From: an uncultured Bacteroidaceae bacterium
Lineage (GTDB): Bacteria > Bacteroidota > Bacteroidia > Bacteroidales > GCA-2748055
Length of the DNA: 64,000 nucleotides
Assembly: GCA_964406495.1 (NCBI GenBank)
Contig: CAYOSB010000002.1
Location: 5,044 to 69,043, forward strand
Direction: 5' to 3'
The position numbers and the translations under genes are program-made. Positions 4,738 to 63,456 of the stretch are shown here, piece after piece. The notes under the pieces were generated by a model that was given only the letters and a program-made list of their open reading frames with translations, was not told the origin of the DNA and did not search any database. Each line of letters opens with the position of its first letter. The stretch's first letter is position 1.

Positions 4738-7272
4738 ATGAACAGGAAGCGCATCATATTGGTGATCTTAACAATGTCATTTTTCTGTCATTCAATTAGT
4801 TATTCACAAAAATCCGGGTTGCAGTTCTCCGGCCACGAAGTCCCGCTTGATAAAAGAACAGGATTGAATTTAACACCTGATCAACCCATTCGATTTGGTT
4901 CTGTTGCAAAACTAACATTTGAACTTAAGTTCGAACCCGACCGTCATTCCTATTTTGGATACATTTTCAGGGCTATTCTTGATGACAAAAATATCGACTT
5001 GATCTATACTACGATCCCTGTCGAAGGAAATAACTTTCACCTGGTGATCGGAGAAAATATCAGCAATATATCATTCTCATTTCCGCTTGATGAAATAACA
5101 ACCCAATGGGTTCCTTTTGAACTCACCATTAATAAGAAGTCAGATCAGATCGAATTAAAAGTAGGGGATAATGCTTTCCAGGATGAATTTTCATCCAGTA
5201 GTCGAAGATCGAAGCTTCTGATATTTTTCGGTGCGCACAGCTACGATCAATTCACATCTACGGATCTGCCAAATATGAATATCCGGGATATTGAATTTTT
5301 TGATAGTGGAAAAAGAAAATACCACTGGCCCCTGAATCAGTATGAAGGTAACAGGGTAAATGAAGTAATCGCAAATTTTAACGGGCAGGTACAAAATCCC
5401 TTCTGGCTGAGAAGTTTCCATCAAATATGGAAATTGACTGATGAGATCTATTTCCAGGGGGAGATTAAGTATGCTTATGATGCAATCAACAACGAGATCC
5501 GGATAATTCAGGAAGATTCAATGTATGCTTATCGCATAGGAAGCAAGCGATTGCGTTCATTTTCTCCGGGACATGATTTCTCTCCGGACGACCTGTACCA
5601 GCTGATCTATGACAGCAAAGACAACAGTTTCATATATTACTCCCTGGACCGGAATATAAAGTGTCTGCTTTCCGCACCCTCCTCCTGCGAAGAGGGTATA
5701 AATCAAAACCTTGGTCAACCAAAACACTGGCATCACAGCAGGATTGTAAATCCTGAGAATGGTGTACTGTACACTTTTGGGGGGTATGGACAGCTTACCT
5801 ATAAAAACAAGGTATTCTCTTTTAATGATTCTGCCGGGCAGTGGACGCCTGTCTCCTACGAAGGGACGTTTTATCCGCGATACCTGGCTGGATTGGGGTA
5901 CCATGAGAAAAACAAAAAAGCATATATCCTGGGAGGGTATGGCAGCAAGCAGGGCAAGCAAGCCATCAACCCGGGGTATTATTTTGACCTTCTGACCTAT
6001 TCATTTGAGGAAAACCGGTTTGAAACCCTCACAGAATTCTCAGATCATAGCAATGATTTCTGCTTCTCCAATTCCCTGCACATAGACACAGCTTCAAATA
6101 CTTTATATGGACTGAAGTTTTCAAAATATGAAGCGACCCCACAGGTACAAGCTGTAGCGGTATCACTGGATGATTATGAAATGACCGAGGTGGGAAATAC
6201 CTTTAGTTTTCCTTTTCTTGACATCAATTCAACAATTGATTTATTCTATGACAGTCTAAACAATCAACTTGTATCTGTCAACACCTTTTATGAAAATGGC
6301 AGGACAAAATTAACCATACATCAAATTGCCTATCCACCCATTTCAGAAACCGCCAGGATTGAAACTTATGAGCAAAGTTATCTCACTTGGATTATTCTTG
6401 CTGTATTGATCATCATCCTGGTAGCGGTATATTTCATCATCAGAAAACAAAAGAAAAAGAAAATAACTGGCAACGACTCAATTGTACATGAATATGTTTT
6501 AGATGAGAATGGTACGGAAATAATAAAACTCGTTGATGCTGAGCCCAAACCCGGATCGGTCATTATATTTGGTGGCTTTCAGATTATCGATGCAAAGGGA
6601 AAAGATATTACCTCCTCCTTCACCCCACTGCTCAAAGGATTGTTCTTGTATATCATGATCGCTTCCCTGCGGCACGGTAAGGGAGTTTCATCGAAATCAA
6701 TCGATGAGGTATTCTGGCTTGATAAATCAAAGCAGTCGGCACGCAATAACCGGTCGGTAAACATTTTAAAATTAAAAACGCTGCTCCAGAATGTCGGTGA
6801 CTGCGAAATTTCCAAAGATACAGGATACTGGAAATTCACTTTTAATCCTTCATCAGTATTCATTGACTTTTATGAATACCTGCAGATTATCAGGAAAGGG
6901 AGGCTTAAATCGAAAGAAGACATGATTAATCTCTTGAAGATTATTCACCGGGGTCCTGCTTTGCAAAATATAAATGCAGACTGGCTTGATGATTTTAAAT
7001 CTGAATTATCAAACGAGATCATTGATAATGTGCTGGAATTTATACATCAGCAAGAAGATAAGATAGAACCTGAGTACATCATCCAGATCACGAACTGCAT
7101 ATTTTTCTTTGATATGATCAATGAAGAAGCGATGATCTACAAATGCAAGATGCTCGTGAAGCTCGGTAAACATAGCCTTGCCAAAAATGCATACGAAAAA
7201 TTTGTCAGGGAATTCAAGGTGCTGTATGACGAAGATTATGACAAAAGTTTTTCTGATGTCCTGAAATCGTAG
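4738..7272 (+). CDS. Single-pass membrane transcriptional regulator: extracytoplasmic LamG-like plus Kelch-like sensor region, TM helix, cytoplasmic SARP-like winged-helix plus BTAD domain
   Basis: 844 aa.
- Signal peptide: MNRKRIILVILTMSFFCHSISYSQ.
- Kelch-like GG motifs: LYTFGGYGQ, AYILGGYGS.
- TM segment: LTWIILAVLIIILVAVYFII, followed by RKQKKKK.
- C-terminal pattern: FGGFQIIDAKGKDIT...LLKGLFLYIMI...GVSSKSIDEVFWLD...ARNNRSVNILKLKTLL...GYWKF...IDFYEY, then IHRGPAL...DW and a helical BTAD-like tail. This matches the OmpR/SARP wHTH plus BTAD layout. Confidence 0.7.
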   Translation: MNRKRIILVILTMSFFCHSISYSQKSGLQFSGHEVPLDKRTGLNLTPDQPIRFGSVAKLTFELKFEPDRHSYFGYIFRAILDDKNIDLIYTTIPVEGNNFHLVIGENISNISFSFPLDEITTQWVPFELTINKKSDQIELKVGDNAFQDEFSSSSRRSKLLIFFGAHSYDQFTSTDLPNMNIRDIEFFDSGKRKYHWPLNQYEGNRVNEVIANFNGQVQNPFWLRSFHQIWKLTDEIYFQGEIKYAYDAINNEIRIIQEDSMYAYRIGSKRLRSFSPGHDFSPDDLYQLIYDSKDNSFIYYSLDRNIKCLLSAPSSCEEGINQNLGQPKHWHHSRIVNPENGVLYTFGGYGQLTYKNKVFSFNDSAGQWTPVSYEGTFYPRYLAGLGYHEKNKKAYILGGYGSKQGKQAINPGYYFDLLTYSFEENRFETLTEFSDHSNDFCFSNSLHIDTASNTLYGLKFSKYEATPQVQAVAVSLDDYEMTEVGNTFSFPFLDINSTIDLFYDSLNNQLVSVNTFYENGRTKLTIHQIAYPPISETARIETYEQSYLTWIILAVLIIILVAVYFIIRKQKKKKITGNDSIVHEYVLDENGTEIIKLVDAEPKPGSVIIFGGFQIIDAKGKDITSSFTPLLKGLFLYIMIASLRHGKGVSSKSIDEVFWLDKSKQSARNNRSVNILKLKTLLQNVGDCEISKDTGYWKFTFNPSSVFIDFYEYLQIIRKGRLKSKEDMINLLKIIHRGPALQNINADWLDDFKSELSNEIIDNVLEFIHQQEDKIEPEYIIQITNCIFFFDMINEEAMIYKCKMLVKLGKHSLAKNAYEKFVREFKVLYDEDYDKSFSDVLKS

Positions 7273-8948: not shown

Positions 8949-11861
8949 TCACTGCCGGATGATCACCAACTCTGAATGTCTTGCACCGGCGGTACCGGCA
9001 GAAAGAATATAGGTTCCGGGATTGATTCCGGTCAGGGGCAATTGTATCACTGCCCTGCCCGGCTGCAGTCGCTGCTCTGTAAAATCCCCGCCAATAATAC
9101 GCCCGCTGAGGTCCCTCAACGCTACATGTATCACATCCGCCTGGTGCATTTCGATGTCAATGGTGAGCGCAGTTTGTGCCGGATTGGGGTACACCTGGAA
9201 CTTCTCCTCCCCAAATCGTTTGTTTTGCGTATATACTCCTTCTTCCATATAGCTGGCGGCGATCAACGCGGGACCATCTCCCATGGTCAGGCTGGTGGAC
9301 GATGCATTCATATCTGCAATCACCGGATTCCCCGATTGGATGATCCACTGATCGAATTTCATACCTGAAGGCGGACGATCGGCAGCAATGGTGACCTGGT
9401 GACCTTCCGGATAGTTTCCTCCCCCGTCACCCCCATCAACCAGCAGGGTATACAGCGGGCCTACTTCGGTATCGATCAATTGGATGGCATCGATACGGGA
9501 AGTAACAGGACCAGATTTAAAGCGATAGATCCGGAACCAGTTAATTGCACTAAGGTCGGGAGACCCCGATTTGTTTGCCTCACTGGTTTTCAGCGTAACA
9601 TAATTCCAGCCGTCGGTTAATCCCGTCAGGTTCCAGCTATACTCGTTCTGGTCGGGTCTGCCTGAGCTGCCGATCTCCACCTGGTTGCTAGATTCATGGA
9701 CCGAGACATCCGAGACATAGTACCAGAAGCTCAGTTCAGTATTTGCTTCTGTGCCATAACAATTATACGGCGTGGTAAAAATCTTTTTAAACTCATCCGT
9801 ACTTGCTGCAGAGAATTCAATACACCCGGTACCCTGTTGCTGATCTGTCTCATTCAGACTCAGTCCGGCAGAAGATTTCCACCCGTCACTGCTGTCACAG
9901 TCATCCAGGTAACTTCCCGGATTGCCACTGATCACCTGCTTCAGTTCCGATTTCTCACCGAACCATTCTTCGCCATCCTGCACCATCTGCCACTGAAAAT
10001 TCAACAACCCGTCCGCATCCGGCACGATTACGTCGAATGTGAAGGTTTTCTCCTCCCCGGGTTCAATGCTGTCCCCTTCGGCAAGATGCACCCGGGTGCG
10101 TCCCCAGGTCTTGTTATCGGCAGGCCCCTGGCTACCCAGCCTGAATTGACCGAGGGGCGTCCAGGAAGTAGTTCCCGTGTTTTTCATGGTAATACTTACC
10201 GTGATCGTATCGCCTGCAACCAATTCAGGGACATCCTGCGCAACGAATGCAGCATCGTTCCCTGTTTCCCTGCCCCCGTTCCGCAAGTCGCGTTGCGAAA
10301 CGCTGTAATAATGGATGGAATTCTTTCCTGCCAGCCACTCCAGCAAGCAGGCCCGCAGTTCCTCGGCTTTATCCAGGTATTGATCACGGTCGGGATTGCT
10401 GCCCAGCAGGTTATTCATTTCATGGGGATCGGTATTCAGATCATACATGGCATTGATCACATCCGATTTGATAGTATAGGGAATCATCAGTTTCCAACCA
10501 TCTTTGACCACCATGTAGTTTGGATTATTCTCCCTGTCCCATTCTGTCACGACATACTGACCATGGATGGTATCGGTTCCTTCGATCAGTCCCCGAAGAC
10601 TTGTACCTTCTGAAGCAGGTCCGGACACATCCAGGTAGTCAAGGATCGTCGGATAAAGATCTGTAAGGGAAACATAGCCTTCGACCGTGGTGGCAGGCTG
10701 AATCTCCCCGGGGTTCTTTATCAGCAGTGGAATGTGTGCAGATTCTTCAAGAAACACGTTTTTCTCTCGCATGCCATGGGCACCCAGCATTTCACCGTGA
10801 TCACTTACAAAAATGACCATGGTCTTGTCTGCAATACCAAGTGAATCCAGTTGATCAAGGATTTTTCCCACATAGTGATCAATCTCTGAAACCAGCCCAT
10901 AATATTCCGAAATCATGTATTTGATCTTGTCCGGATCCGCATATTCTGTCCGGTTTTGCCTGCTGTTGGAGCGCACATACGGTGAATTCTGCATGTCATC
11001 GTCAATACTCACCGGCGGCACCATTTCCTCCACCGGGTACATGCCGTACCAGGGTTCAGGAGCAAGCATAGGGGAATGCGGGAAATGAAAGGAACAGGTA
11101 ATACTGAAGGTGGAATCCTTCAGCCGCTCGATCGCCTCCATCGCCTGCCCGGCCTGGAAGGCAGTCATGGTATGCTCCTGGTCGAGTGTCAGTTCGCCGT
11201 GTTGATCGGGCTGTGAATGCTTTAATCCCTGGTTTTGCAATTCCTGCCATGTTTTACCAAAATAGCGGTCCAGGGGATTGGCGATATAGGGCCACTTTGA
11301 CATTCCATCTATAAACTCACCCGCGCCCGGGGCTGGGGGAGAACCCACTTTTGCTAGGTAGTCCCGCCAGATGTGACTCTGTCCGCCGGGTCCGAACACC
11401 GAAGCCCCGTTCCCTGCAACCTGCACTGGGTTTTCGTATACTTCAGCACGTTCTGACAGGGCATGCCATTTCCCGTAGTATTCGCATCGATAGCCATTTT
11501 CTGACAGCACCTCATCAAATGTCGGCATGGTCATTACCTCGCTCTCATCGTAATAATACGTTTGCCCGTTTGAGTAAACGCCGGTGCCCTCAACGGAGAA
11601 ACCGGTAAGCATGGAAGAGCGTGCCGGTCCGCAAACAGCGCACGGTGTATAGGCATTCCTAAAATAAGCGCCCTCCTCCGCAAGACGGTCCAGGTTGGGT
11701 GTCTGAATGACATCATTCCCTGCATATCCCAGTGCATCGTAGCGTTGCTGGTCTGTAATTATAAATAACAGGTTCTTTTTTTTCGGTTGCTGGGAGATAG
11801 CGTTCTGGAGGAATAATAACCCCAGAAAGATAAATAGGTACCGCGACATATCAATGTTCAT
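8949..11861 (-). CDS. Multidomain sulfatase with Ig-like/CBM-like modules and a T9SS C-terminal sorting domain
   Basis: 970 aa.
- N-terminal sulfatase: NLLFIITDQQRYD, TPCAVCGPARSSMLTG, GKWH.
- Ig-like block: TITVSITMKNTGTTSWTP...FQWQMVQDGEEWFGE.
- Jelly-roll/CBM-like block, then a YTLLVDGGDGGG...FDQW repeat-type block.
- C-terminal FQVYPNPAQTALTIDIE...GTYIL...VIIRQ, typical of a Por/T9SS sorting domain. Confidence 0.9.
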   Translation of the reverse strand: MNIDMSRYLFIFLGLLFLQNAISQQPKKKNLLFIITDQQRYDALGYAGNDVIQTPNLDRLAEEGAYFRNAYTPCAVCGPARSSMLTGFSVEGTGVYSNGQTYYYDESEVMTMPTFDEVLSENGYRCEYYGKWHALSERAEVYENPVQVAGNGASVFGPGGQSHIWRDYLAKVGSPPAPGAGEFIDGMSKWPYIANPLDRYFGKTWQELQNQGLKHSQPDQHGELTLDQEHTMTAFQAGQAMEAIERLKDSTFSITCSFHFPHSPMLAPEPWYGMYPVEEMVPPVSIDDDMQNSPYVRSNSRQNRTEYADPDKIKYMISEYYGLVSEIDHYVGKILDQLDSLGIADKTMVIFVSDHGEMLGAHGMREKNVFLEESAHIPLLIKNPGEIQPATTVEGYVSLTDLYPTILDYLDVSGPASEGTSLRGLIEGTDTIHGQYVVTEWDRENNPNYMVVKDGWKLMIPYTIKSDVINAMYDLNTDPHEMNNLLGSNPDRDQYLDKAEELRACLLEWLAGKNSIHYYSVSQRDLRNGGRETGNDAAFVAQDVPELVAGDTITVSITMKNTGTTSWTPLGQFRLGSQGPADNKTWGRTRVHLAEGDSIEPGEEKTFTFDVIVPDADGLLNFQWQMVQDGEEWFGEKSELKQVISGNPGSYLDDCDSSDGWKSSAGLSLNETDQQQGTGCIEFSAASTDEFKKIFTTPYNCYGTEANTELSFWYYVSDVSVHESSNQVEIGSSGRPDQNEYSWNLTGLTDGWNYVTLKTSEANKSGSPDLSAINWFRIYRFKSGPVTSRIDAIQLIDTEVGPLYTLLVDGGDGGGNYPEGHQVTIAADRPPSGMKFDQWIIQSGNPVIADMNASSTSLTMGDGPALIAASYMEEGVYTQNKRFGEEKFQVYPNPAQTALTIDIEMHQADVIHVALRDLSGRIIGGDFTEQRLQPGRAVIQLPLTGINPGTYILSAGTAGARHSELVIIRQ

Positions 11862-32781: not shown

Positions 32782-32979
32782 AATTAATCTGTTTAGCTGT
32801 TGTATGATAGAATATAGATGTTGTGTTTATGGCTTTGACTAAGGTTTTTGTTATGGTTGTATTTTTGCATTGAATGGCTGAAACATAATTGCCGGTGACC
32901 CGTTAAGATGAATTAGTTTTTTTACTTCAACTGTATCTGTTTAAGGTATCATTGATTTTACTAATATAAACGCGATACA

Positions 32980-33273
32980 TTAGCAGCACATTAAAAGATT
33001 CTTAATTCGGCAAAAATAAGCTGTGTAGATTTCATATTTAATCGAAGGATGTCCCCTGACATATTCTTTCTCCGTGATCCAGTTAAGGTGATCCATATTG
33101 GGTGTCTGGAATTCTGCATCTGCATTCAGGTAGCTCGCATCGCCAAATCCCTGGTCATCGTTATAAATGATAATGATGTTGGGATTGCCTGGAGGTGTTT
33201 TTTCGCTGCACCCGAAGAATATGGTGGGTGCAATAATTTACATTATATTAAATATCATTCGATTGTGAATCAT
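32980..33273 (-). pseudogene. Decayed sulfatase N-terminal remnant
   Basis: My own minus-strand translation gives MIHNRMIFNIM-stop(33238-33240)-IIAPTIFFGCSEKTPPGNPNIIIIYNDDQGFGDASYLNADAEFQTPNMDHLNWITEKEYV..., then unrelated sequence and a stop at 32980. It is homologous to the N-terminus of the 56658-58253 sulfatase (PNIIVIYTDDQGFGDMSLLNPDAKFETPNLDRM). It has an in-frame stop in the signal peptide and no C-x-P-x-R motif or catalytic core. Confidence 0.6.
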
Positions 33274-33307
33274 AGAAACTGCACATTAATTTAAACTGCG
33301 CGCTAAT

Positions 33308-35986: not shown

Positions 35987-36258
35987 TGGGTCAAAAAGAT
36001 ATATTTTTACTTGTTCAAACCATTTATTAGAATCTGCAGAAACCATAAAGAAAAAGGTTGATGTGTTATTTAACTCATCTCCGGTCAATTTATAATTATC
36101 CTGTAATTTAATGCGGATGTTCTGACAAGATGTTTGTCGAAAGCAAGATTATTGCTAATTCAGGCTCAACTTGCCAATCACCCTATACCCTGTCTCATTT
36201 TTTCATATTTCTCAGTGTTAAAAACACTTTTCAGCTTATCCTGATAACAAGTTCATTA

Positions 36259-36498
36259 CTAATCGCTATAATTACCTGTTGTAAGCTGACTGCGTGACAG
36301 GTTAATTTTGAAATACTCTTTACCATCATCCAGCATCAATCGGTAAGTTACTTCAGGGTCTCTTTTCCTTGTCATTGCTTTTTCCGGTTGAATCCTGTTT
36401 TGTTTTGTTTTGTTTTGAGCCATCACAGTCATGTTCATCACGGACATGGACAGTAAAACAAATAAAATCAGCCTTAAATTTCGATGATCAGACTTCAT
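36259..36498 (-). CDS. Small hypothetical secreted protein (79 aa)
   Basis: ORF with a plausible signal peptide, NLRLILFVLLSMSVMNMTVMAQ. No family was recognised. It contains a (TGTTT)x4 tract at 36396-36417. The coding status is uncertain. Confidence 0.3.
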   Translation of the reverse strand: MKSDHRNLRLILFVLLSMSVMNMTVMAQNKTKQNRIQPEKAMTRKRDPEVTYRLMLDDGKEYFKINLSRSQLTTGNYSD

Positions 36499-36851
36499 AA
36501 TTGTGCTGATTTAATCTTATTAAAAAATTAGTACTCAAGGGGTTAATTTTTACTAAATTTTCTCAAATTGTGGATGCTACGCTAACGCGTTTCTATTTTT
36601 CCGGTACCAGGCTCAATAATGTTGAATCGCCTGTCTGATAATGGAGTTGCTTCGCTTCAGGAAGTTCAGAATAACATCCCTGAAGCATCACGATAAAAAG
36701 CATTCCAACGGACAGCAACACATCGAAAAACTTCACAAAGGGAAGCAGTCCATGCAATGATACACCTTTACGTAATATTTGATCAATTGAGTGGATGCTT
36801 TCCATATTGTTTACAGGTCAAGTTATTATATGCAGGTAAATGATGTACCTC

Positions 36852-52883: not shown

Positions 52884-53522
52884 TTAATCGAGCTCTTTGA
52901 TCCGTATGTTCCGGAAACTGTATACCTGGCCATCCTCTCCATGGTGCTGCAGGGCAATGTGACCTTTCGCATCCATATCGTCAGTATAATCTGTGCATAA
53001 TACATCGTTAACATAGATGCGCAGCCGGGTGCCTTCTGCATGGATCCGGTATTTATTCCAGCCGTAACGCTTAAATGATCCTTCTGTCTTTTCGCGGAAT
53101 GCATCTCCTGAAGGGGAATCATTGGGTTTCTGCGGATATAACCAGCCACGGCGTCCCTCATCGTAAAGTCCGCCCGACCAGGCACGGTCAGAAGCATCGA
53201 CTTCCGCCTGGTAGCCCCATACTTTGTTAGGCTTCACATGGCACCTGAACATAAATCCCGAATTGGATTTACCTTCCGGCAATTTGACCTCTCCCTCAAA
53301 GATAAAGTCAGAATAAGTATCCTCAGTAACGAGAAAGAACTTTTTGTCGGCAACCAGGTGAATTTCACCATCCACCACTTCCGCTTCTCCCCAGTCATAA
53401 GGATTCATCCATCCATTGAGAGTTGATCCGTCGAAAAGATCCACCCATCCCGCTCCACTTTCCCGTGGGGATGAAAAATTAAAAGCTGAAAGAACAAGAA
53501 TTGTTAAGACTAATGTTTTCAT
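52884..53522 (-). CDS. Secreted DUF1080 (3-keto-disaccharide-hydrolase-like) protein
   Basis: Start at the Met at 53522 (MKTLVLTILVLSAFNF). Motifs WVDLFDGSTLNGW, NSGFMFR, GYQAEVD and HIALQHHGEDGQVYSFRNIRIKEL. Confidence 0.85.
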   Translation of the reverse strand: MKTLVLTILVLSAFNFSSPRESGAGWVDLFDGSTLNGWMNPYDWGEAEVVDGEIHLVADKKFFLVTEDTYSDFIFEGEVKLPEGKSNSGFMFRCHVKPNKVWGYQAEVDASDRAWSGGLYDEGRRGWLYPQKPNDSPSGDAFREKTEGSFKRYGWNKYRIHAEGTRLRIYVNDVLCTDYTDDMDAKGHIALQHHGEDGQVYSFRNIRIKELD

Positions 53523-53652
53523 AATTAAATATTTATGAGTGTTTTGATAAGCATGAAATAATAACCGGTTTCTATAATGATGGTCGGTCGCACCGCAATT
53601 TCGCAAAAAATTCTGTTTATTCCCACTTGTGGCCTGTCGCTTTGATCATTTT

Positions 53653-56508
53653 CTACAGACGCCAGGGCTCCAGTTCCTCGCTTTTCCAAACGATTTCCCT
53701 TTTGCCTCCTGCATCTTCGCGAACTATCACCAGGCTTCTCCCGGCAGTAATCCCCAGCAAATAAGTACCCAGCTTTTCAATCTCCGGGGTTGTATAGGGT
53801 GTTGCTTCCACATTGCCGGGGGTACCACGATAGATCACCAGCTGTCCCCTTTCAAGGGCTACAAAATGCGGTGCACCATGGTCATTATGCATCATTGCTT
53901 TCCAAAGCATGCCCCTGGTATTTTCCGGGGAGCCATCATACAGGATCAGGCGGCCGTCATCCCGCAACCGGATAAAACACTCCAACCGGGGAAATTCAAA
54001 GACATCTTCATCGGTAAATATATCTCCCTCTTCGAGGATAACCTGGTGGATTTCATCCTGCCAGTCCATCGCCCGGTCTTCTGAAACAGATCCAATTGTA
54101 ATTTGGATCTCCCGTTTACCGATGGTCCCGGTATGGTCCTCAGCAACTGCCATGAGCTCATACACTCCCGGTGCCAGCCCTTTCAGTAATGGATCGCTTG
54201 CCTCGCTCCATGTCATTGGCTTTCCCCTGTGCGGCTTTAATTTCAGACCGTTGAAGTACAGCATAATTTCCCTGATACCATCTGCGTCCTCGGCCACCAA
54301 CTCTGCCCGCAGGTCGGTTCCTGCCGGCAATTCAATACCATCTGACAGGTTAGTAAAATGCACTTCGGGGGCATCTCCCTCCCGCCTGACGGTCTCAACC
54401 TCTTGCTCTACTTCTGATAAAATGCTTTCCCAATCCATATAACTGGTTCTTTGCATCAATTGAGACCTGTATTGCGATGAAACTATCGCTGTATATGCTT
54501 TCCATTCATCAACTGCATCTTCCAGGTGTGCAACGGCATCATCACTGAATTGTTTTTGCTGTGTGGTGACCCGAAACGCTGCCAGTTTGGCCGCACCACG
54601 CATTTTATCTGCATAATAGCGCCCCAGGTAAGCCATCGCCTCAATGTCATTTAACGTTTCGGTCAATTCTGCCTGTTCTGCAGCCTGTGCCCGCAAGTCC
54701 GGAATGAGTGCGAGTGCTCTTGCCGCATAAGTATCCAGTTGATCCGCTACCTGAAAGGGTGTGATTCCAGGTAACTGATCACCGTTCACAATGGCCTCTC
54801 CCCATTCCTGCACGGAGTGAATGCCAGATCCGATCATCGGCCAGAATGAAAAATTGTAGTCATCGATAGTAAGGAATCCTCTCCTGTCAATACATCCTTC
54901 AGGTGCAAGGTGTGCATCATTGGGACAGAAGGTGGCATTGTTGACCAGGGGTATAATTTCACCTGTGGCTGCCCAGGCATCATAAAGTTTCCCGGGATCA
55001 ATACCCGGAAACCGATACCGCAGGTTCGCCTCCCAGTAATCCCGTCCAAGATTTGGATCATACGCAAGCTCTCCCCACATGCGGAAACGGTACCAGTGTT
55101 TATCGATCTCCAGTTTTCCGGATGTTTCCGGGTTTTTGGAAATAAATTCACGTCCCCAAACATATCCGTCTGACCCCATATAAAATCCTGCCATCACATC
55201 ATGCGGCATCAATTGGATATAATCCCGCACATAATCCGGATTACCCCAGCGCAACACAAACATGTCATCGTTTCGCAGGTTGAGCCAGCTGCGAACCCAG
55301 TACTTCTCCACATCATCCCGAAACCAGCGGTCAAACAACTGTGGATGTCGGCCGGTATACATATGCCCGATCGCATATTTAAAACTGGTTTCAAATTTAT
55401 CGGGAAAATCCTCAAATGCAGTTGTTATGGGTCCCAGTCCTGTCATATGCCGGCGAAAAATGAACCGGACATTCCGCTCTGGTTGCTGTTCAAGTACATC
55501 CATGATGCCCCGTCCATAGGTGTTGAAGAGAAAATTTTCGATCGAGTACTGGCCCGCAATATGATTATCCGCATTTTCTCCAGCAGTGACCCCAATACCG
55601 GCGATCTGGGGATAGGTCTTCAGGGCCTCACGGACACATTCCCTCATGTAATCATTTGTAACAGGGTTGGTCTGGTCAGGGGTAATACCGTGTTTACCGG
55701 TCGCACCAAAGGTCATGACATTCCAATGAAACAGGTAGATCTCAATCCCGCGATCCCCTGCATATTCAAATACCATTTGCCAGTATTTGATCTTATCTTC
55801 GATCGGGATCTTTTTGACCAATTCAATTGTTCCTGGTTTTTCGAGGTCCACATCCTGCAACCTGTTTTTGTGTTCTGATTTGAATACACCTTCGCTGACA
55901 CGGTAAACATCATCAAGGGCTACTTCGGGAAAATCGTCCAGTTGGATGATGGAAGGGTAAGGATGTGTGCTCCAAAGGCTCAACACATTATAGCGGTAGC
56001 GTGCCAGGTCATCTAAATAGGCCTTCCAGAACTCAATATCCCAGACCGTTTCGATATTGTTCTGGGCATTGTCGCCAGTGTCATCGTATGAAGGGGTCCG
56101 GGCATCCCATGGAATATTGAATTTCATACCTCGTTTTCTTACAAAAGGCTCTTTTTTAACGTTTTCCACCGGTAATCCCAATCTGATCCGCTCAGCCAGT
56201 TCAATTCCACCGTACATTGCCCCATTTGCATCCGACCCGGTAATTTCAATGATCCCAGGTTGTACTAACAGGATTTCAAATGCTTCGGGCGAATCCCTGT
56301 CATGGCTGACGGACAGTGTTACATGGAGCGTTTGCTGTCCGGCTTCTGCAAGTGCACGTTCCAATTCGCCGGCAGCAAACGCCACCTGTGGAATACTTGC
56401 ATCATATTCAACCTGGGCAATGATATGATAAGGCACCAGGATTCCTGAAAAAAGCACCGAGAACAAAAAATATATTGATTTCTTCATCATAGGGTAGGTA
56501 TTTCCCAT
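53653..56508 (-). CDS. Uncharacterised GH-like protein (paralog of 45674-47854) with C-terminal Ig-like and bulb-lectin-like modules
   Basis: 951 aa.
- N-terminal and core blocks: NGAMYGGIELAERIRLG, RKRGMKFNIPWDARTPSYDDTGDNAQNNIETVWDIEFWKAYLDDLARYRYNVLSLWSTHPYPSII.
- C-terminal 114 aa: three repeats of the type CFIRLRDDGRLILYDG / HFVALERGQLVIYRG / YLLGITAGRSLVIVRED.
- The start may be 56490 (MMKKSIYF). Confidence 0.75.
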   Translation of the reverse strand: MGNTYPMMKKSIYFLFSVLFSGILVPYHIIAQVEYDASIPQVAFAAGELERALAEAGQQTLHVTLSVSHDRDSPEAFEILLVQPGIIEITGSDANGAMYGGIELAERIRLGLPVENVKKEPFVRKRGMKFNIPWDARTPSYDDTGDNAQNNIETVWDIEFWKAYLDDLARYRYNVLSLWSTHPYPSIIQLDDFPEVALDDVYRVSEGVFKSEHKNRLQDVDLEKPGTIELVKKIPIEDKIKYWQMVFEYAGDRGIEIYLFHWNVMTFGATGKHGITPDQTNPVTNDYMRECVREALKTYPQIAGIGVTAGENADNHIAGQYSIENFLFNTYGRGIMDVLEQQPERNVRFIFRRHMTGLGPITTAFEDFPDKFETSFKYAIGHMYTGRHPQLFDRWFRDDVEKYWVRSWLNLRNDDMFVLRWGNPDYVRDYIQLMPHDVMAGFYMGSDGYVWGREFISKNPETSGKLEIDKHWYRFRMWGELAYDPNLGRDYWEANLRYRFPGIDPGKLYDAWAATGEIIPLVNNATFCPNDAHLAPEGCIDRRGFLTIDDYNFSFWPMIGSGIHSVQEWGEAIVNGDQLPGITPFQVADQLDTYAARALALIPDLRAQAAEQAELTETLNDIEAMAYLGRYYADKMRGAAKLAAFRVTTQQKQFSDDAVAHLEDAVDEWKAYTAIVSSQYRSQLMQRTSYMDWESILSEVEQEVETVRREGDAPEVHFTNLSDGIELPAGTDLRAELVAEDADGIREIMLYFNGLKLKPHRGKPMTWSEASDPLLKGLAPGVYELMAVAEDHTGTIGKREIQITIGSVSEDRAMDWQDEIHQVILEEGDIFTDEDVFEFPRLECFIRLRDDGRLILYDGSPENTRGMLWKAMMHNDHGAPHFVALERGQLVIYRGTPGNVEATPYTTPEIEKLGTYLLGITAGRSLVIVREDAGGKREIVWKSEELEPWRL

Positions 56509-56657
56509 ATCTTAATATTTCTACAGGCCGCAGTGAAGTTTTTATCTGCACCCACTTCCCTTCTTTTGCCCCGTGGATTTGCATGCCCTTTTGTGCTTGC
56601 TTCCTCTGAACCTTTAGCTCGGCGGAAGCCAAATTAAAATGCTCAATGATGAGGGTT

Positions 56658-58253
56658 TCATTCTGATAATTCTTTAATAACTTCAGGGTGCTGTCTTGCT
56701 GCGTATTCCTCCTCTGTGACCCAGCTCAGATCTTTCCAGTAATAAGTATCATTCATCTGAAGTGGTCCAACTGTTGTTCGTCCATTTAATACGATATCAA
56801 TTGCTTTTTGCGTAAGCTCTGCAACAATTTCCGGATGTCTGGCAGCGACATCATTCTCCTCTGATGGATCATCGGATAAATTGAAAAGCGCTTTCTTATT
56901 ACCGGCAATATGGAAGATTAATTTCCAGTTGCCTTCAGTGATCGCATAGTCACCCCTGTTTGAATGATTGATCAAAGGCAATCTGGCATGGTTTGTTGTT
57001 GGCTTTCGCAGCACATTGGCAAAGCTGTAACTATCCACTCCTCCATCTGCCGGTAATTCGGCACCAATGATTTCAGCAAATGTTGCCAGCAGATCAACCT
57101 GACCAACAATCCCATTCCAGGTTCGGCCCGGGCTCTTTACGCCATTTGGCCATTGAACGATAAAAGGAACACGATGTCCGCCCTCATAGATCGAACGTTT
57201 ACCGTCCCTGTAAATGTAATTGCTAAAGTGTCCAAAATCGTCTATTCTTTCCCTCCATGAATTTTCCGGACCATTATCGCTGCTGAACACAACCAGGGTA
57301 TTCTGATCCAATCCGGATTTCTCAAGGTAATCAAGGATTTGACCGACATGATGGTCCGTTTCTATGACAAACTCGCCATAAGCTCCGGCCTCGCCCTGAC
57401 CATGAAAATCAGGTAAGGGACACACCGGGTAATGCGGAGAAGTATAGGCCAGGTAAAGAAAGAAAGGTTTGCCATTTTCAGCATCCGCCTTTTTCCCATT
57501 CATCCATTCAATAGCTTTGTCAGTGAAACGAGTCAGACATAAGCTATCCGCAAAATCCGGGGCCACCTCCATACCCCTTCTATTTAACAGCACTTTGGTT
57601 GCTTCCGGATTTTCCTGGTACGGTGGAATGATCCGGTAATCCACATGTCGTGCATTTGGTTTTTTCGCTGTATATAGTATAGGTGGCACTTTTGCATAGC
57701 GGCCTTCGAACCAGGCGAGGACTCCATAGTTTAATGATGCCGGTATGCCGTAGAAATATTCAAAACCTTTGTCCAGCGGCATATCCAAAACAGGCCTGCT
57801 CCAATCGCGATCCTCCGGGGTTCCGGGGAAGTCCATGCCGAGGTGCCACTTTCCAACCATTCCGGTATTGTATCCGTTGTCGCGCAACATCGAAGCCAGT
57901 GTCATGCGGTCATCGTTAATCAGGCACTCTGCTTCTGCTCCGAGTACCCCCCGCTTTTTTACGGTCCGCCAACAATAACGACCGGTCAGTAAACCATAGC
58001 GTGAGGGTGTACATACTGCATCAGCACTATGCGCATTTGTAAAAAGAATACCTCCTTTTGCCATGCGATCAAGATTAGGAGTTTCGAATTTTGCGTCCGG
58101 ATTCAACAGGCTCATATCTCCAAACCCCTGGTCATCGGTGTAAATAACAATGATATTGGGCTTTTCAGGTAAATCACCGGTGCAGGAGTGCATCACAGCA
58201 GCAATGACAATAAAACCAAAAGTGCTAATTATGATTGTCTTATTTAATTTCAT
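56658..58253 (-). CDS. Arylsulfatase (Cys-type)
   Basis: 531 aa. Lipoprotein signal VMHSCTG. Motifs PNIIVIYTDDQGFGD, ADAVCTPSRYGLLTGRYCWRT and GKWHLG. Confidence 0.95.
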   Translation of the reverse strand: MKLNKTIIISTFGFIVIAAVMHSCTGDLPEKPNIIVIYTDDQGFGDMSLLNPDAKFETPNLDRMAKGGILFTNAHSADAVCTPSRYGLLTGRYCWRTVKKRGVLGAEAECLINDDRMTLASMLRDNGYNTGMVGKWHLGMDFPGTPEDRDWSRPVLDMPLDKGFEYFYGIPASLNYGVLAWFEGRYAKVPPILYTAKKPNARHVDYRIIPPYQENPEATKVLLNRRGMEVAPDFADSLCLTRFTDKAIEWMNGKKADAENGKPFFLYLAYTSPHYPVCPLPDFHGQGEAGAYGEFVIETDHHVGQILDYLEKSGLDQNTLVVFSSDNGPENSWRERIDDFGHFSNYIYRDGKRSIYEGGHRVPFIVQWPNGVKSPGRTWNGIVGQVDLLATFAEIIGAELPADGGVDSYSFANVLRKPTTNHARLPLINHSNRGDYAITEGNWKLIFHIAGNKKALFNLSDDPSEENDVAARHPEIVAELTQKAIDIVLNGRTTVGPLQMNDTYYWKDLSWVTEEEYAARQHPEVIKELSE

Positions 58254-58380
58254 AACAGGTTAATCGTTGCTCATCCATGCAATCGTTTTGTTCTCCCCTT
58301 TACCTTGATAAACGGCAAGTCTTTTTTGATGCAGTAATTTCAAGTTTAAATGGACCCGTGTCTGATTCCAGGAAACCGGG

Positions 58381-59958
58381 TTATTTCTCATCTTCATCCA
58401 GCGCGCGTTTACCTTCAAAAGCGTTCCACTTCAACCGGTCTTCTGTTTTTCTGTCGGCTAAATATACCTCTGGATCATAATCCGGATTGGGCTTGGGAAA
58501 ACGGGCCCGATAGGTTTCAAAGTAAGCCATCATCTCATCATAAAGCTCCTGGTGTTTTTCCGGGTATTCATCAGCGATGTTCACTACCTCTCCAGGATCT
58601 TTCGACAGGTCAAAAAGCATCGGAATTTCCGGTGATTCATAGAAATGAACTACTTTGTGTTTGCCTGAAATAATCGCTGAATGTGGTACAGAAGTACGAT
58701 AGTGGGGATAATGAAAATAAAGATGACGGTTCAGGAACGCTTCACCAGGTGTTTCTCCTGAAATGTAATCTGCAAGGCTGACCCCGTCAATATTCTGAAT
58801 TGCTTCCGGGAATCCGCCTGCCCAATCAACAAACGTGGGCAGGAAATCATAATTGATCACATTCCCTGCAAACACGGAACCGGATTCAATTCCCGGTCCT
58901 TTGACGATCATGGGCACCCTGATGCCACCATCCCAGTTCCACCATTTGGCTGCATGCAGTGGTTGTGTCAGTTCAGGATTGAGGTCCAGCTCGCTATGCC
59001 TGTAACCATTATCCCCTACCAATACAATATAAGTGTTATCAGCAATTCCAAGTTCTTCCAGCTTATCGAGCACAGCCCCGATCCTTCCATCCAGGTCCTC
59101 ACCCATAGCGAGCCAGTTCGCAGGATCCCGCTTGCGCTGGATCGTCTCGGGATCCATATTGTTTCTTTTGTACCAGTCCTGGACTGCAGGGTGATTGACA
59201 TACTTCTGCCGGGTCTCATTTAAACACTCCCTGCCCGCGTGCATGGCATAGTGAGAAATCTGGAGATAAAAAGGATTTCCCTGCTCCACCTGGTCCTCGA
59301 TAAAGTCAATTCCCTTTTCCGTAATACTGAACATCAGTTTAGGATCAGAAAGATCTTCAGGCAATCTTCTTGGATTCGGTGCTCCCGGTGGCAGGTTGTT
59401 CCGAAGCGTGTTTCCTTCGCTATTTGTAGTCGGACCATCATGTACTGCATAGCCATGCAGTTCCGGATCGCTCCTCATATGCCATTTACCAACATGGGCA
59501 CTTACATAACCATAGGGTTCCAATGCCTCCGGAATGGTAACCGATGCCGTATCAATTTCATAATCTGATACATTGGGTATCATCGGAAAATGCTGGTAAC
59601 TGTTGCTGTTGTCATAATACGCATCCTCGTTGTTCCCGAGGAATACGGTAAAGCCACTGCGGACGACTGACTGACCGGTCTGAACACACACCCGTGCCGG
59701 GGAGCACTGCGGCGATCCGTATGCATTACTGAACTTCATCCCTTCCTCAGCAAGCTTTTCGATGTTAGGCATTTCCAATACTGGCATAAATGCATTCTGC
59801 ATGGAATCAACCATTGGAACCGGAGACCCGTTCCATGCCCAGTCATCAATGTAAAACATTACGATATTGGGTCGTTCAACCGGTGGTGTCCCGCAGGAGG
59901 CAAAAACCAGGACCATGATAAGAATTGTGGATTTCAACAGATGCTTCAAAATTTTCAT
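58381..59958 (-). CDS. Sulfatase (Cys-type) with a conserved acidic C-terminal tail; paralog of 63596-64000
   Basis: 525 aa. Lipoprotein signal VFASCGTP. Motifs [30 protein letters not shown] and GKWHM. C-terminal tail [12 protein letters not shown]...[12 protein letters not shown]. Confidence 0.9.
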
Positions 59959-59970
59959 AATCAGGATAGT

Positions 59971-60179
59971 TTTTTCGTTTATAGGTTTATTCGTAATATG
60001 TCCGTTCGTTGTATATCCGTTCGTTGTATGTCCGTTCGTTGTATGTCCGTTCGTGATTTGTCCGTTCGTGATTTGTACGTTCGTGATTTGTACGTTCGTG
60101 ATTTGTACGTTCGTATGATGTACGTTTGTGATATGTCCGTTCGTAATATACCGTTAGTTTTATATCCGTTAGTATTTTT
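59971..60179. repeat. 15-bp tandem repeat array (about 12-14 units) in three sequence subtypes
   Basis: Units read directly from the sequence:
- 60001 TCCGTTCGTTGTATA
- 60016 and 60031 TCCGTTCGTTGTATG
- 60046 and 60061 TCCGTTCGTGATTTG
- 60076 and 60091 TACGTTCGTGATTTG
- 60106 TACGTTCGTATGATG
- 60121 TACGTTTGTGATATG
- 60136 TCCGTTCGTAATATA
Degenerate units lie on both flanks. The array sits between the start codon at 59958 and the stop at 60250. Confidence 0.9.
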
Positions 60180-60249
60180 TACTTATGTTGTAGAATTATA
60201 GTTTGGTTTGCGCCGCATGCAATCGCTCCCTGATAGCAAAGCATATGGT

Positions 60250-61743
60250 TTACATAAATTCTTTGATGTAGATATCCTTAAAGCGGATCTTTAATTCACT
60301 TTTCGCGTGCAACTGGAGCGCAATGCGTCCTTTCATACCGACATTGTATAGTTGATGCGCCTGGTTGTCCAGGATCCCTGTAAAATCTTCGTCACATACG
60401 ATCAAACCATTCAATATGGTGATCATCCTGGTTCCCTGGCAGATGATCTTCATCTCATTCCACCCATCACCGTCCTCCGCATACTTAAATACGACCTCTT
60501 CGGGCCCCTGTTCTCTTTTTATTGCAGACCCCGGAGACGGTGGACAGATCCAGCCGCGGGCCTTCCTGGTCTCATCATAGATGAGTCCTGTCCGCCATGG
60601 TGCCGGGGGATGTATGTCGACCTGCGGGCCATCCAGCCATCCACCGCGCGGGGCACTTTCTGAGCGGTCATACCTGCTGCGCACCTGTACCCCGCTATTG
60701 CCTTTGCTCTCCCTGAATGCCTGTAACTTAAGCTGAAGCTCGAAGTCAGCATATTCCTTATCAGTGCATAACCAGATGTAATCATGATCCTGAGAACCGA
60801 TGGAATTGCATTCAATGGTTCCATCCTTCACCCGCCAGAAATTCCTGTCCCTGTCCTTATCGACGGAAGCGACATGCCATCCTTCGAGTGAGGTTCCGTT
60901 AAAAAGCGACAGCTTTTTATTTACGGATGGATCACCCTTGAGAAAAGCTTTCAGTTTGGGAGCGAAATTTCCGTTCAAATCTCCAGTGGCCAGTACATAG
61001 GCCATTCCCCCATCAGATGCATCAAGGCCGTTTTCCTTGTGCTTCGCTGTGGCGCGGAACCTGGAATATAACCACCTGTATTCTTCACGATCGGCGGTCT
61101 TCATCCACTCCACCTGGTCCCAGCCGTCATATGCCCTGCCACCAAACTTGGTTCTTCCCTGCCCTGTAGTATAAAAGTATGTTGCGCCCAGGGCAACGCA
61201 ATCATCTTTTCCATGCGAAGGAGAACCATCTTCAAGCTTCCACTTATCAGCCCGCTCATTGATCTCAGCATGTGATACCAGGATGCAATATTTCCGCTTT
61301 TCAGGATCCGCCCGTAATATTGCCTGGTAAGCCACCTCAAATGGTCCTGCCTGGACATACCAGAACTTACTGCCCGGGTGACTTTTATTGATTTCTTCCT
61401 TTGCATGTTCAATGGCAGCCTCCAACGCTCGTTGATCGTCGAAAAAGACCGCTTCATTAAAATTAAACCTCTTCGCGCCGCCAATCGTGCTTTCATAATT
61501 CTCGGCTTCCTTCCATTCCAGGCTGTTGTCCAGCCTGTTGTTGTAATCAAAATGAACCAGCTTATCGTGCCATCCCATTTTATCAAATATGGCAAGTGCC
61601 AGTGCAGTGGCACTCCAGTCATCGGGATCATGCATGTTGCCATCCGCACTCCAGCCGATACGGTCATTTTCACCCGGAAGTTGGGCGATGATCTCATTCA
61701 ACCCTGAGATGATAATTACCAGGACCAATAACATTGTCCGCAT
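60250..61743 (-). CDS. Secreted fusion protein: unknown N-terminal domain (possible nucleoside-hydrolase-like fold) plus C-terminal DUF1080 domain
   Basis: Start at the Met at 61743 (MRTMLLVLVIIISGLNEIIAQ). The N-terminal half contains HDPDDWSATALALAI, which is reminiscent of a DxDDxxA nucleoside-hydrolase-like motif; this link is weak. The C-terminal half has LSLFNGTSLEGWHV, WRVKDGTIEC, NSGVQVRSRY, GPQVDIHP and RIALQLHAKSELKIRFKDIYIKE. Confidence 0.8.
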   Translation of the reverse strand: MRTMLLVLVIIISGLNEIIAQLPGENDRIGWSADGNMHDPDDWSATALALAIFDKMGWHDKLVHFDYNNRLDNSLEWKEAENYESTIGGAKRFNFNEAVFFDDQRALEAAIEHAKEEINKSHPGSKFWYVQAGPFEVAYQAILRADPEKRKYCILVSHAEINERADKWKLEDGSPSHGKDDCVALGATYFYTTGQGRTKFGGRAYDGWDQVEWMKTADREEYRWLYSRFRATAKHKENGLDASDGGMAYVLATGDLNGNFAPKLKAFLKGDPSVNKKLSLFNGTSLEGWHVASVDKDRDRNFWRVKDGTIECNSIGSQDHDYIWLCTDKEYADFELQLKLQAFRESKGNSGVQVRSRYDRSESAPRGGWLDGPQVDIHPPAPWRTGLIYDETRKARGWICPPSPGSAIKREQGPEEVVFKYAEDGDGWNEMKIICQGTRMITILNGLIVCDEDFTGILDNQAHQLYNVGMKGRIALQLHAKSELKIRFKDIYIKEFM

Positions 61744-61848
61744 CAGTATTTTTTCCTTTACCTGCTGACAACTTTTTGTAAATAAATTCAAATGTGGCAT
61801 AGAGTCGTTTTCATTTATTACAGTGATAGATTTTTTCTTTCAAAAACG

Positions 61849-63456
61849 TTATAGTTCCCGGTTCTGAATTTCAACAACTCGATGCGGTTCATGCTTTTCC
61901 ATCCACGCGATCAATTTCGCCTTCATCTTCTCCGCCTGGGTCCGGTTTAGTTCCGGTGAAACCGGTGATACAAGCAGGTTGCGCATTTCATTGGGATCAT
62001 TCTCCAGGTCATAGAGTGCATCCAGGCTCTCCTGGTCTGCCTTTCCTGCGATCATCAGCTTCAGGTTCCCGCTCCTGATCATGTAATTTGGTTCATTTCT
62101 ACCGGTGGAATAAGACACCACATCATGATCCACCGGTTTCCCTTCGATAAATGTCCGCAAACTTATTCCATCTGACCTGGGAGCAGGCTTATCCATGTAA
62201 TCAAGTATAGTCGGACATACATCCATAGTGGATACAGGTGCATCCACCACTGTCCCGGCTTCGATACGCCCGGGAAAACGCATCAGTAATGGAACATGAA
62301 CAGCTCCCTCGTAGAACATCGATTTAGAGTGGATCCCGTGGTCCCCGAGCATCTCACCGTGGTCAGATGTGAAAATTACAAGCGTGTTATCTGCCAGTCC
62401 CAGTTCATCCAGCTTGTCAAGAATCGTTCCGAGCCTGCGGTCTATTTCACTCACCATCCCATAGTAGATCGATCGCATATGCTGAATATTTTCCGGAACG
62501 CGATAGCGCCATTCATTTTCTCCATGCATCCTTCTCCTGTAAGGAGAGTCCGTCATGGGATCATCAATGGTTTCAGGTACCGGGATGGATTCCGGGGGAT
62601 ACATACTGTAAAAAGGTTCCTGCACTACCATGGGCGGATGTGGTGGATCAAAAGAGCAGGTTAGTGTAAAAGGACCCTCTTTCATTCGCTCCAGTGCATC
62701 CAGGGTCTGCTCTGTATTATATGCTGTGTAGGATATATCCGGTGGCAGATCAAGTTTTCCGTATTGCGTGGATTGCCTGGCCTGTAAATTATTCTTTGCC
62801 TCCGGGGATGCATCAGCCATGTCATAATTATAGTCTAGTTTTACAGGAGTATAGGGCCGGTGGTTTCTTCCTGAAAATAGCTCACCATCGCCGGGCTTTT
62901 TAGGTTCAACACCCTTGCTCACCAACCATTCCTTATAAACTGTAATAATATGCGGCACACCGTAATGATTTCCGATGGGATTCACTGTATTATCGTAGCA
63001 ATCCGTGAACTGGTAGGGCGTGTGCCATTTGCCATAATATTCTGCCGCATAACCATGCTTTTTCAATATCCTGTCGAAGGTCGGCAGATCAGGCACATCT
63101 TCGTTCATGTAATCTCCATTGTTTTCCACTGTAGTATTTACAGAGGAACGGCCGGTTAGAAAAACAGCACGGGAGGGCACGCAGACCGGGTTGGCTGAGT
63201 AGGCATTTGTGAAGATGACCCCCTCCCGGGCGACACGATCCATATTGGGTGTCTCAATAATGGAATTGCCGGCACAGCCCATCGCATCAAAACGCTGCTG
63301 GTCGGTCATAATGAATAGCAGGTTGGGCTTGCTATCTTTCCCTTCTGACCCGACTTCACCCTCCTGTTTCGGAGTTGCTTCTATCGTTTGAAGCAGTGCC
63401 ATAATGAATACAAGAAAAAATATTCCAAAGATCCATGTAGTATTACGTGTTCTCAT
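61849..63456 (-). CDS. Sulfatase (Cys-type); catalytic domain paralogous to 8949-11861
   Basis: 535 aa. Motifs PNLLFIMTDQQRFD, ANPVCVPSRAVFLTGRSS and GKWH. Confidence 0.95.
   Translation of the reverse strand: MRTRNTTWIFGIFFLVFIMALLQTIEATPKQEGEVGSEGKDSKPNLLFIMTDQQRFDAMGCAGNSIIETPNMDRVAREGVIFTNAYSANPVCVPSRAVFLTGRSSVNTTVENNGDYMNEDVPDLPTFDRILKKHGYAAEYYGKWHTPYQFTDCYDNTVNPIGNHYGVPHIITVYKEWLVSKGVEPKKPGDGELFSGRNHRPYTPVKLDYNYDMADASPEAKNNLQARQSTQYGKLDLPPDISYTAYNTEQTLDALERMKEGPFTLTCSFDPPHPPMVVQEPFYSMYPPESIPVPETIDDPMTDSPYRRRMHGENEWRYRVPENIQHMRSIYYGMVSEIDRRLGTILDKLDELGLADNTLVIFTSDHGEMLGDHGIHSKSMFYEGAVHVPLLMRFPGRIEAGTVVDAPVSTMDVCPTILDYMDKPAPRSDGISLRTFIEGKPVDHDVVSYSTGRNEPNYMIRSGNLKLMIAGKADQESLDALYDLENDPNEMRNLLVSPVSPELNRTQAEKMKAKLIAWMEKHEPHRVVEIQNREL

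Follow-up and report, generated by a model that had tools for sequence, protein, structure and literature searches.

A 15-bp tandem array occupies the spacer between two co-oriented genes of a sulfatase cluster in the window, by which we mean the whole stretch of 64 kb of DNA that was analyzed. The array is probably a minisatellite (a bacterial VNTR) that is specific to its lineage, expanded recently and is tolerated at this position, and not a dedicated array of protein-binding sites. Functional roles such as copy-number tuning, a DNA operator or the binding of proteins to RNA, including Rho loading, are on balance unlikely.

A 15-bp array between a DUF1080 gene and a sulfatase gene

The minus-strand genes at 58381-59958 and 60250-61800 are separated by a spacer of 291 nt (59959-60249). 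An initial inspection of the letters alone (the sequence-only reading) had reported that a minisatellite takes up the region directly upstream of the sulfatase gene, and most of the intergenic spacer is indeed occupied by it. The features of the region are as follows.

58381-59958, minus strand: sulfatase gene, 525 aa (Pfam PF00884 and PF16347; tblastn of orthologues)
59959-59985, minus strand: decayed or non-repeat tail with the sulfatase translation-initiation region (from the sequence)
59971-59985, no strand assigned: degenerate proximal copy TTTTTCGTTTATAGG, recognisable only via TTCGTT...TA.G (direct sequence reading)
59986-60179, no strand assigned: core minisatellite of 13 head-to-tail units (TRF, unit table, lag-15 self-identity, neighbour test)
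60180-60249, minus strand: unique 70-nt spacer from the DUF1080 stop to the distal array end, with no other copy in the window
60250-61800, minus strand: upstream DUF1080 gene, 516 aa, with a C-terminal 3-keto-disaccharide hydrolase domain (Pfam PF06439)
59941-60201, plus strand: artefactual 86-aa ORF in stop-free repeat frames
59867-60118, plus strand: artefactual 83-aa ORF in stop-free repeat frames

Analysis of the 64-kb window with TRF revealed one array (59990-60174, period 15, 10.7-12.2 copies, 84-88% matches, score 178-185), and the runner-up tandem repeat reached a score of only 54. Similarly, the self-identity of the array at a lag of 15 amounted to 0.79, with 0.85 in the best 150-nt window, compared to 0.21-0.27 at lags other than multiples of 15, and in the rest of the window self-identity did not exceed 0.49 at any lag from 4 to 60. 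Thus, the array is real, comprising 13 units and one degenerate copy, and it is the sole strong tandem repeat of the window. Its distances to the flanking genes had also been given correctly, as it ends 28 nt upstream of the ATG at 59958 and 70 nt past the stop codon at 60250-60252.

In the 15-nt register, 12 of the 13 units in 59986-60179 have a length of 15 bp and one (60151-60164), from which one base was lost, has a length of 14 nt. The unit consensus reads TCCGTTCGTGATATG on the plus strand, which corresponds to ...ACGAACGGACA... on the gene (minus) strand. Unit positions 3-9 (CGTTCGT) are nearly invariant, with variation at positions 2, 10, 11, 13 and 15; in 9 of the 10 central units this core is unchanged while the 4-5 nt between cores vary. 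Neighbouring units share 83% identity, compared to 72% for non-neighbours (order permutation p = 0.0002), identical units cluster in runs of 2-3 in the middle of the array, units at both edges are degenerate, and the longest perfectly periodic stretch measures 52 nt. These results agree with the earlier description of ordered subtype blocks and degenerate ends, a pattern expected from duplication and slippage. The composition of the blocks required correction, as a block described as three identical copies does exist but is made up of two exact TCCGTTCGTTGTATG units and one unit ending in A, and the grouping of the GATTTG units depends on the register (2+2 or 1+3). Spacer-less head-to-tail units of ~10-100 bp, and a pattern of local duplication in which neighbours are most alike and edges are decayed, are among the hallmarks of a VNTR or minisatellite, and both were found in the array.

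Changes from neighbour to neighbour fell into the core in 5 of 29 cases, fewer than the 13.5 expected for this core, which was defined post hoc, and a count of distinct states did not give a significant result for core conservation (p = 0.14). The under-representation of changes within CGTTCGT could reflect constraint and is suggestive only.

Reading frames and the start of the sulfatase gene

The N-terminus of the sulfatase is a lipoprotein-type signal. In tblastn searches, sulfatase orthologues align from residue 1, and for this reason the ATG at 59958 is the true start and the array is untranslated. In the product of the upstream gene, the N-terminal ~290 aa are without domain assignment. 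The final 27 nt before the sulfatase ATG lie outside the well-formed array, and the sense strand of 59959-59985 reads AAACGAAAAAACTATCCTGATT-ATG, with a run of A from -12 to -17 and an A at -3. No Shine-Dalgarno sequence was found ahead of the ATG on the sense strand of this segment, which may be comparable to the A-rich initiation regions of Bacteroidota. The degenerate copy at 59971-59985 overlaps the A-rich stretch just upstream of the start.

No stop codon interrupts the array in any of the three sense frames, the array is in frame with the genes on both sides, and ATG, GTG and TTG do not occur in it on the sense strand. Open frames combined with a lack of start codons are compatible with selection against interference, or with chance. 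An N-terminal extension of the sulfatase through the array was considered, as the frame is shared and no stop intervenes, but it was rejected because no start codon of these three types is available in the array, the alignments with orthologues begin at residue 1, and the lipoprotein signal is located at the start of the protein. Repeat-encoded pentapeptides make up the two plus-strand ORFs (59867-60118 and 59941-60201), which lie antisense to the start of the sulfatase gene, and the stop-free frames of the repeat account for them, in line with the sequence-only reading.

Genomic context

Both genes belong to a group of six consecutive minus-strand genes (52884 to 63456), in which gaps measure 46-149 nt except for the 291-nt gap with the array. 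The position of the array therefore looks like that of an intercistronic spacer in an operon-like setting, and the spacer would be transcribed as part of such an operon. The window covers a very large cluster for the breakdown of sulfated glycans, which extends from 7316 to 63456, mostly on the minus strand, and comprises at least 14 sulfatase genes, three GH92 genes and one GH95 gene. Also encoded are two alpha-galacturonidase-like proteins, three PQQ/beta-propeller proteins, several GFO/IDH/MocA oxidoreductases, DUF1080 proteins and a sodium/solute (SSS) symporter. One of the sulfatases (8949-11861) bears a C-terminal sorting domain of type IX secretion (T9SS). Together with the lipoprotein signal of the sulfatase next to the array, the lack of a Shine-Dalgarno sequence and the nearest relatives, this domain suggests that the DNA is from Bacteroidota. 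No SusC/SusD pair was identified among the ORFs of at least 150 aa that were scanned against Pfam or NCBIfam.

Within the tightly packed minus-strand cluster, two long non-coding gaps were noticed at 36089-36851 (763 nt) and 32782-33307 (526 nt). TAnnTTTG boxes are present in them at 36303 and 32860 on the plus strand and at 33018 on the minus strand, and small repeats were found at 36396 (TGTTT, 4.4 copies) and at 33276 (a 17-bp unit, 1.9 copies). Neither gap gave an Rfam match at the gathering threshold, and these gaps may be promoter regions or gene remnants.

Absence of the array from related loci

Only 5 full-length homologues of the upstream DUF1080 gene were found in 5.8 billion proteins. 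In the locus of its closest relative (L002, 85% amino acid identity), no array was present in the 132 nt that follow the aligned gene end up to the end of the contig. The locus with the closest sulfatase orthologue (L119, 73%) has kept the order of DUF1080 gene and sulfatase gene with a repeat-free spacer of 78 nt, and in L120, L121/L122, L124 and L125 the gaps amount to 8-103 nt, compared to 291 nt in the window. The array was absent from all relatives found (72-85% protein identity), whose spacers measure 8-103 nt where the next gene is visible, and TRF detected no comparable array over ~160 kb of related loci. Since it is missing in the relatives and from these ~160 kb, the array is, judged from the sequences compared, a lineage-specific insertion or expansion that is younger than the split from the relatives with 85% protein identity. 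Its absence at 72-85% protein identity is compatible with a young lineage-specific function, for example copy-number tuning.

When the window spacer was aligned locally with the spacers of L002 and L119, scores were no better than for shuffles, and no residual similarity was found. On the same grounds, a 'proto-unit' ACAAATCGAAC... in the L002 spacer was rejected. At 2609-2658 of L002, the DUF1080 gene runs 13 codons past the stop position of the window gene (ETTNRTRTQNIN*), and the next ATG (MKLLKNLI...) resembles the start of the window sulfatase, with a stop after 12 codons, shortly before the contig end.

Metagenomes were also scanned with the degenerate two-unit pattern CGTTCGTNNTNTGTNCGTTCGT, in which 18 of 22 positions are fixed, and at least 100 loci matched. 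Among the matches listed, nearly all were microsatellites of the (CGTT)n type and none was an orthologous locus; further alleles could exist beyond those listed. One match (L026, 527-1587 of Ga0126336_10053793) is a minisatellite of ~1 kb with ~70 copies of a 15-bp unit (ATGTCCGTTTGGTGT / CGTTCGTTGTATGTA) that is very similar to the window unit, on a 2.8-kb metagenome contig without convincing bacterial genes. This contig is probably eukaryotic host DNA whose resemblance is due to chance and was picked by the search pattern. L026 was rejected as a homologue, as 1-2 look-alikes are expected by chance and nothing else ties it to the locus. Collections of plasmids, phages and viral contigs gave no match to the array.

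A second assembly and the question of copy number

The only other public assembly of the locus is from Logan run SRR7048225 and consists of two contigs that are 100% identical to the window, and both data sets may derive from the same read set. That the copies were spuriously expanded or collapsed by the assembler has to be considered for a contig from a metagenome assembly, in which repeats are error-prone, and the Logan contigs do stop and start inside the array, at three identical GTACAAATCACGAAC units. However, both array edges and 11 unit junctions were reproduced base for base in the SRR7048225 assembly, for which a different assembler was used, the longest perfect run of the array is shorter than a typical read, and unit variants anchor the remainder. 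Also, a break at k = 31 would need at least three identical units, which is consistent with the three present in the window. An assembly artefact deserves hardly any credence.

One of the Logan contigs (L123, 3-1712) corresponds to window positions 58381-60090 and begins in the repeat. In its gene call the coding sequence of the sulfatase reaches into the open frame of the repeat, so that the product has 569 aa instead of 525. The protein collection lacks the exact 525-aa sulfatase (best match only 73% identical), though the SRR7048225 sample has the gene, and the falsely extended product of 569 aa probably explains this absence. A cluster look-up in 15 billion proteins gave no variants of the upstream gene at 90% identity or more, and two near-identical variants of the next sulfatase are located on contigs whose ~2 kb do not extend as far as the array.

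The sense strand of the gap was searched for elements of transcription, and neither a terminator nor a sigma-70-like site above shuffle expectation was found. The strict Bacteroidota -7 box TAnnTTTG is absent from this strand in a consensus scan, which an atypical promoter could escape. The sole TAnnTTTG of the gap is located on the opposite strand at 60121, within one mutated unit. Similarly, the sense strand of the unique spacer at 60180-60249 contains neither a hairpin followed by a U run, as in a terminator, nor a strict TAnnTTTG box. No inverted repeats bracket the array or the spacer, the best inverted pairs being 11-19 nt long with 74-91% complementarity at other positions, and this rules out an invertible promoter of the Bacteroidales 'fin'-type shufflon.

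These data bear on the possibility of phase variation, which the sequence-only reading had raised for a spacer of variable copy number. Slippage would alter the number of 15-bp units, and the length of the spacer or the number of elements would set the output of the sulfatase gene. Runs of 2-3 identical adjacent units, with the 52-nt perfect stretch among them, would be good substrates for slippage, the array lies immediately upstream of the start of the gene, and a phase-variable copy number of promoter tandem repeats has been described for Mycobacterium tuberculosis (PMC12817950). As the Logan short-read assembly breaks exactly at the triple unit, variation at this site would be invisible. 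However, no polymorphism was seen, the sole other data set being identical on both sides of the array, and consensus scans detected no promoter motif in or beside the array on the sense strand. Furthermore, a 15-bp unit keeps no logic of -35/-10 spacing, and the reading frame is irrelevant because the array is untranslated. We consider such copy-number control of the sulfatase gene unlikely.

The CGTTCGT core and the protein encoded at 4738-7272

According to another proposal, a transcription factor would bind the CGTTCGT direct repeats cooperatively, as in an iteron-like or operator array, and would thereby control the sulfatase gene. This would agree with the invariance of the core in nearly all central units next to variable intervening nucleotides, and the window encodes a membrane protein (4738-7272) with a cytoplasmic domain of 270 aa, which the sequence-only reading had taken for a regulator. 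However, no other intergenic region of the 64 kb, and hence of a cluster that is presumably co-regulated, contains the core. Elsewhere in the window, CGTTCGT occurs once (about 4 occurrences are expected by chance), inside a gene at 13434, and the repetition of a motif upstream of other genes that is typical for the operator of a regulon was not observed within the 64 kb. A period of 15 bp corresponds to ~1.4 helical turns and places successive sites on different faces of the helix, which also argues against an operator, and relatives with the same gene pair lack the array. Neither a replication gene nor features of an origin are located nearby, and the cumulative GC skew is monotonic.

The gene at 4738-7272 (plus strand) encodes a protein of 844 aa with a signal peptide, a weak Kelch/beta-propeller region at residues ~330-450, one hydrophobic helix at ~550-575 that is predicted to span the membrane, and a helical cytoplasmic C-terminal domain of ~270 aa. 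For this C-terminal domain, no sequence match was obtained in Pfam, NCBIfam or PDB, and no DNA-binding domain was detected. By eye, its motif 'IDEVFWLDKSKQSARNNRSVNILKLKTLLQ' is winged-helix-like. A single-sequence AlphaFold model of the protein was unusable (pLDDT 47) and was left out of the fold search. With weak Kelch repeats, one membrane helix and a C-terminal domain lacking assignment, the designation as a regulator is not established; the protein could control the cluster as an uncharacterised one-component regulator in the membrane. Taken with the evidence on the core, a DNA operator or iteron-like array is very unlikely.

Properties of the putative transcript of the array

The sense strand of the array is composed of 46-48% A, compared to 28 ± 5% for the cluster, and has a C/G ratio of 1.5-1.8, compared to 0.89. 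Nowhere else in the 56-kb minus-strand cluster is the sense sequence as rich in A and as poor in G and U as in the corresponding RNA (~70% A+C). ACGGA was counted 7 times in the spacer of 291 nt, compared to 0.9 times per kb overall, and GGAUA is found in two units and GGACA in five units of the sense RNA. The folding energy predicted for the sense RNA was -34.4 kcal/mol, compared to -38.4 kcal/mol for shuffles (z = +1.05), and the antisense RNA likewise folded no better than shuffles. No match to Rfam reached the gathering score, and a lone match with E = 0.43 is located outside the array. With no fold above shuffles and no Rfam match, a structured cis-regulatory RNA or a member of a known RNA family was discarded.

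An element acting at the RNA level, which had also been suggested, could nevertheless consist of repeated ACGAACGGA(C/U)A motifs in an A/C-rich transcript that recruit an RNA-binding protein, for example an RRM-type Rbp protein of Bacteroidota or Rho, and thus set translation, stability or termination. In favor of this possibility, the sense RNA is predicted to be single-stranded, its composition is unusual within the cluster, ACGGA is enriched, and the GGAUA and GGACA units partly resemble GUAGGAUA, which is bound by RbpB. RbpB of B. thetaiotaomicron binds single-stranded RNA and a probe with 3x GUAGGAUA (bioRxiv 10.1101/2021.04.27.441718). However, two units share 5 of 8 nt with the RbpB motif, which is a partial match, the enrichment reflects one repeat that is counted many times, and the array is not conserved in relatives and offers neither covariation nor structure as evidence. 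A reading of the array as a CsrB-like sponge has no partner, since Bacteroides is reported to be without CsrA and Hfq (PMC13370968). We regard an RNA-level element as highly improbable.

Comparison with known repeat systems

The unit of the array is much shorter than those of MIRU elements, which are 40-100 bp long. Further differences from MIRU-VNTR loci and promoter repeats are that a single locus was seen and that no promoter is duplicated by the repeat. The array nevertheless resembles the intergenic VNTRs represented by the MIRU-VNTR and promoter tandem repeats of M. tuberculosis in its spacer-less head-to-tail units of at least 10 bp, its site between co-oriented genes, its sub-type blocks and decayed ends, and the trouble that it causes for short-read assemblies; common to both is a unit length that is a multiple of 3, by which frames stay open (PMC12817950). 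Judging by its anatomy, as seen in one allele, the array would best be grouped with the promoter tandem repeats and intergenic VNTRs of bacteria.

Within the same phylum, P. gingivalis has BrickBuilt, an intergenic repeat whose tandem units lack spacers and combine conserved with variable positions, and which is found 49-591 nt from genes (PMC4596501). By analogy, the array could belong to a mobile element, namely a BrickBuilt-like MITE with many dispersed copies in the genome. The likeness extends to the conserved and variable halves of the units and to a location tens to hundreds of nt from genes. However, BrickBuilt has a unit of 23 nt, a leader and a tail with terminal inverted repeats, 19 occurrences per genome and promoter activity (PMC4596501), whereas the array has a unit of 15 nt, no terminal inverted repeats around it or its spacer and no promoter motif. 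Since leader, tail and array are each unique in the 64 kb, a BrickBuilt-type MITE was discarded as far as this stretch is concerned, and a minisatellite mobilized in this way is extremely unlikely.

The TAACTGA heptamer repeats of Beggiatoaceae, Cyanobacteria and some Bacteroidetes are likewise direct repeats in the untranslated region before a start codon, and a post-transcriptional, protein-binding role has been suggested for them (PMC4679880). They differ from the array in their unit of 7 nt instead of 15 nt, in their ~170 loci per genome and in their location a few nt from the ATG (PMC4679880), whereas the array was found at one locus, with its end 28 nt upstream of the start codon.

Plasmid and origin iterons share with the array several direct repeats with a conserved core. 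Iterons measure 17-22 bp and are spaced in helical phase, whereas the units of the array abut at 15 bp, with no rep gene, origin, AT-rich unwinding region or skew shift. An iteron array was rejected, the neighbours being sulfatases, DUF1080 proteins and glycoside hydrolases and the GC skew showing no turn. Finally, a CRISPR array, which has repeats of 21-48 bp and unique spacers of similar length, was ruled out as the units abut without spacers.

Proposed origin and significance

For a tolerated minisatellite, the anatomy of the array suggests that slippage during replication, or else unequal recombination, multiplied the 15-bp unit. Recent duplications would have generated the runs of identical neighbouring units in the middle, and the copies at the edges would have decayed by point mutations and one 1-nt deletion. 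The array would probably be transcribed together with the flanking genes as an untranslated, unstructured spacer, whose sense RNA contains ~47% A, lacks a terminator and canonical start codons, and does not encroach on the final 27 nt ahead of the ATG. Its toleration is understandable because it is unstructured and devoid of start codons and terminators and because the initiation region is preserved. The likeliest effect would be none, or a mild length-dependent change in the expression of the downstream sulfatase. Such a change could come about if coupling to the upstream gene were loosened, or if Rho or ribonucleases gained more room on an untranslated RNA with more C than G. A dedicated conserved mechanism is disfavored since relatives lack the array and the core motif is absent from the rest of the cluster.

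As it stands, the array adds nothing to existing knowledge of bacterial tandem repeats. For practical purposes, arrays of this kind break short-read assemblies and create spurious ORFs and false N-terminal extensions, and should the array turn out to be polymorphic, strains could conveniently be told apart by it. It would then also provide a small example of repeat-mediated expression tuning in a sulfatase cluster of environmental Bacteroidota. It is distinctly unlikely that the array is a young functional cis element, in which a copy number changed by slippage tunes the sulfatase from a polycistronic message, either via single-stranded ACGAACGGA sites for an RNA-binding protein or Rho or via CGTTCGT sites for a DNA-binding regulator. 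If this were true, the array would constitute a heritable and reversible expression dial for a glycan-degradation cluster of Bacteroidota.
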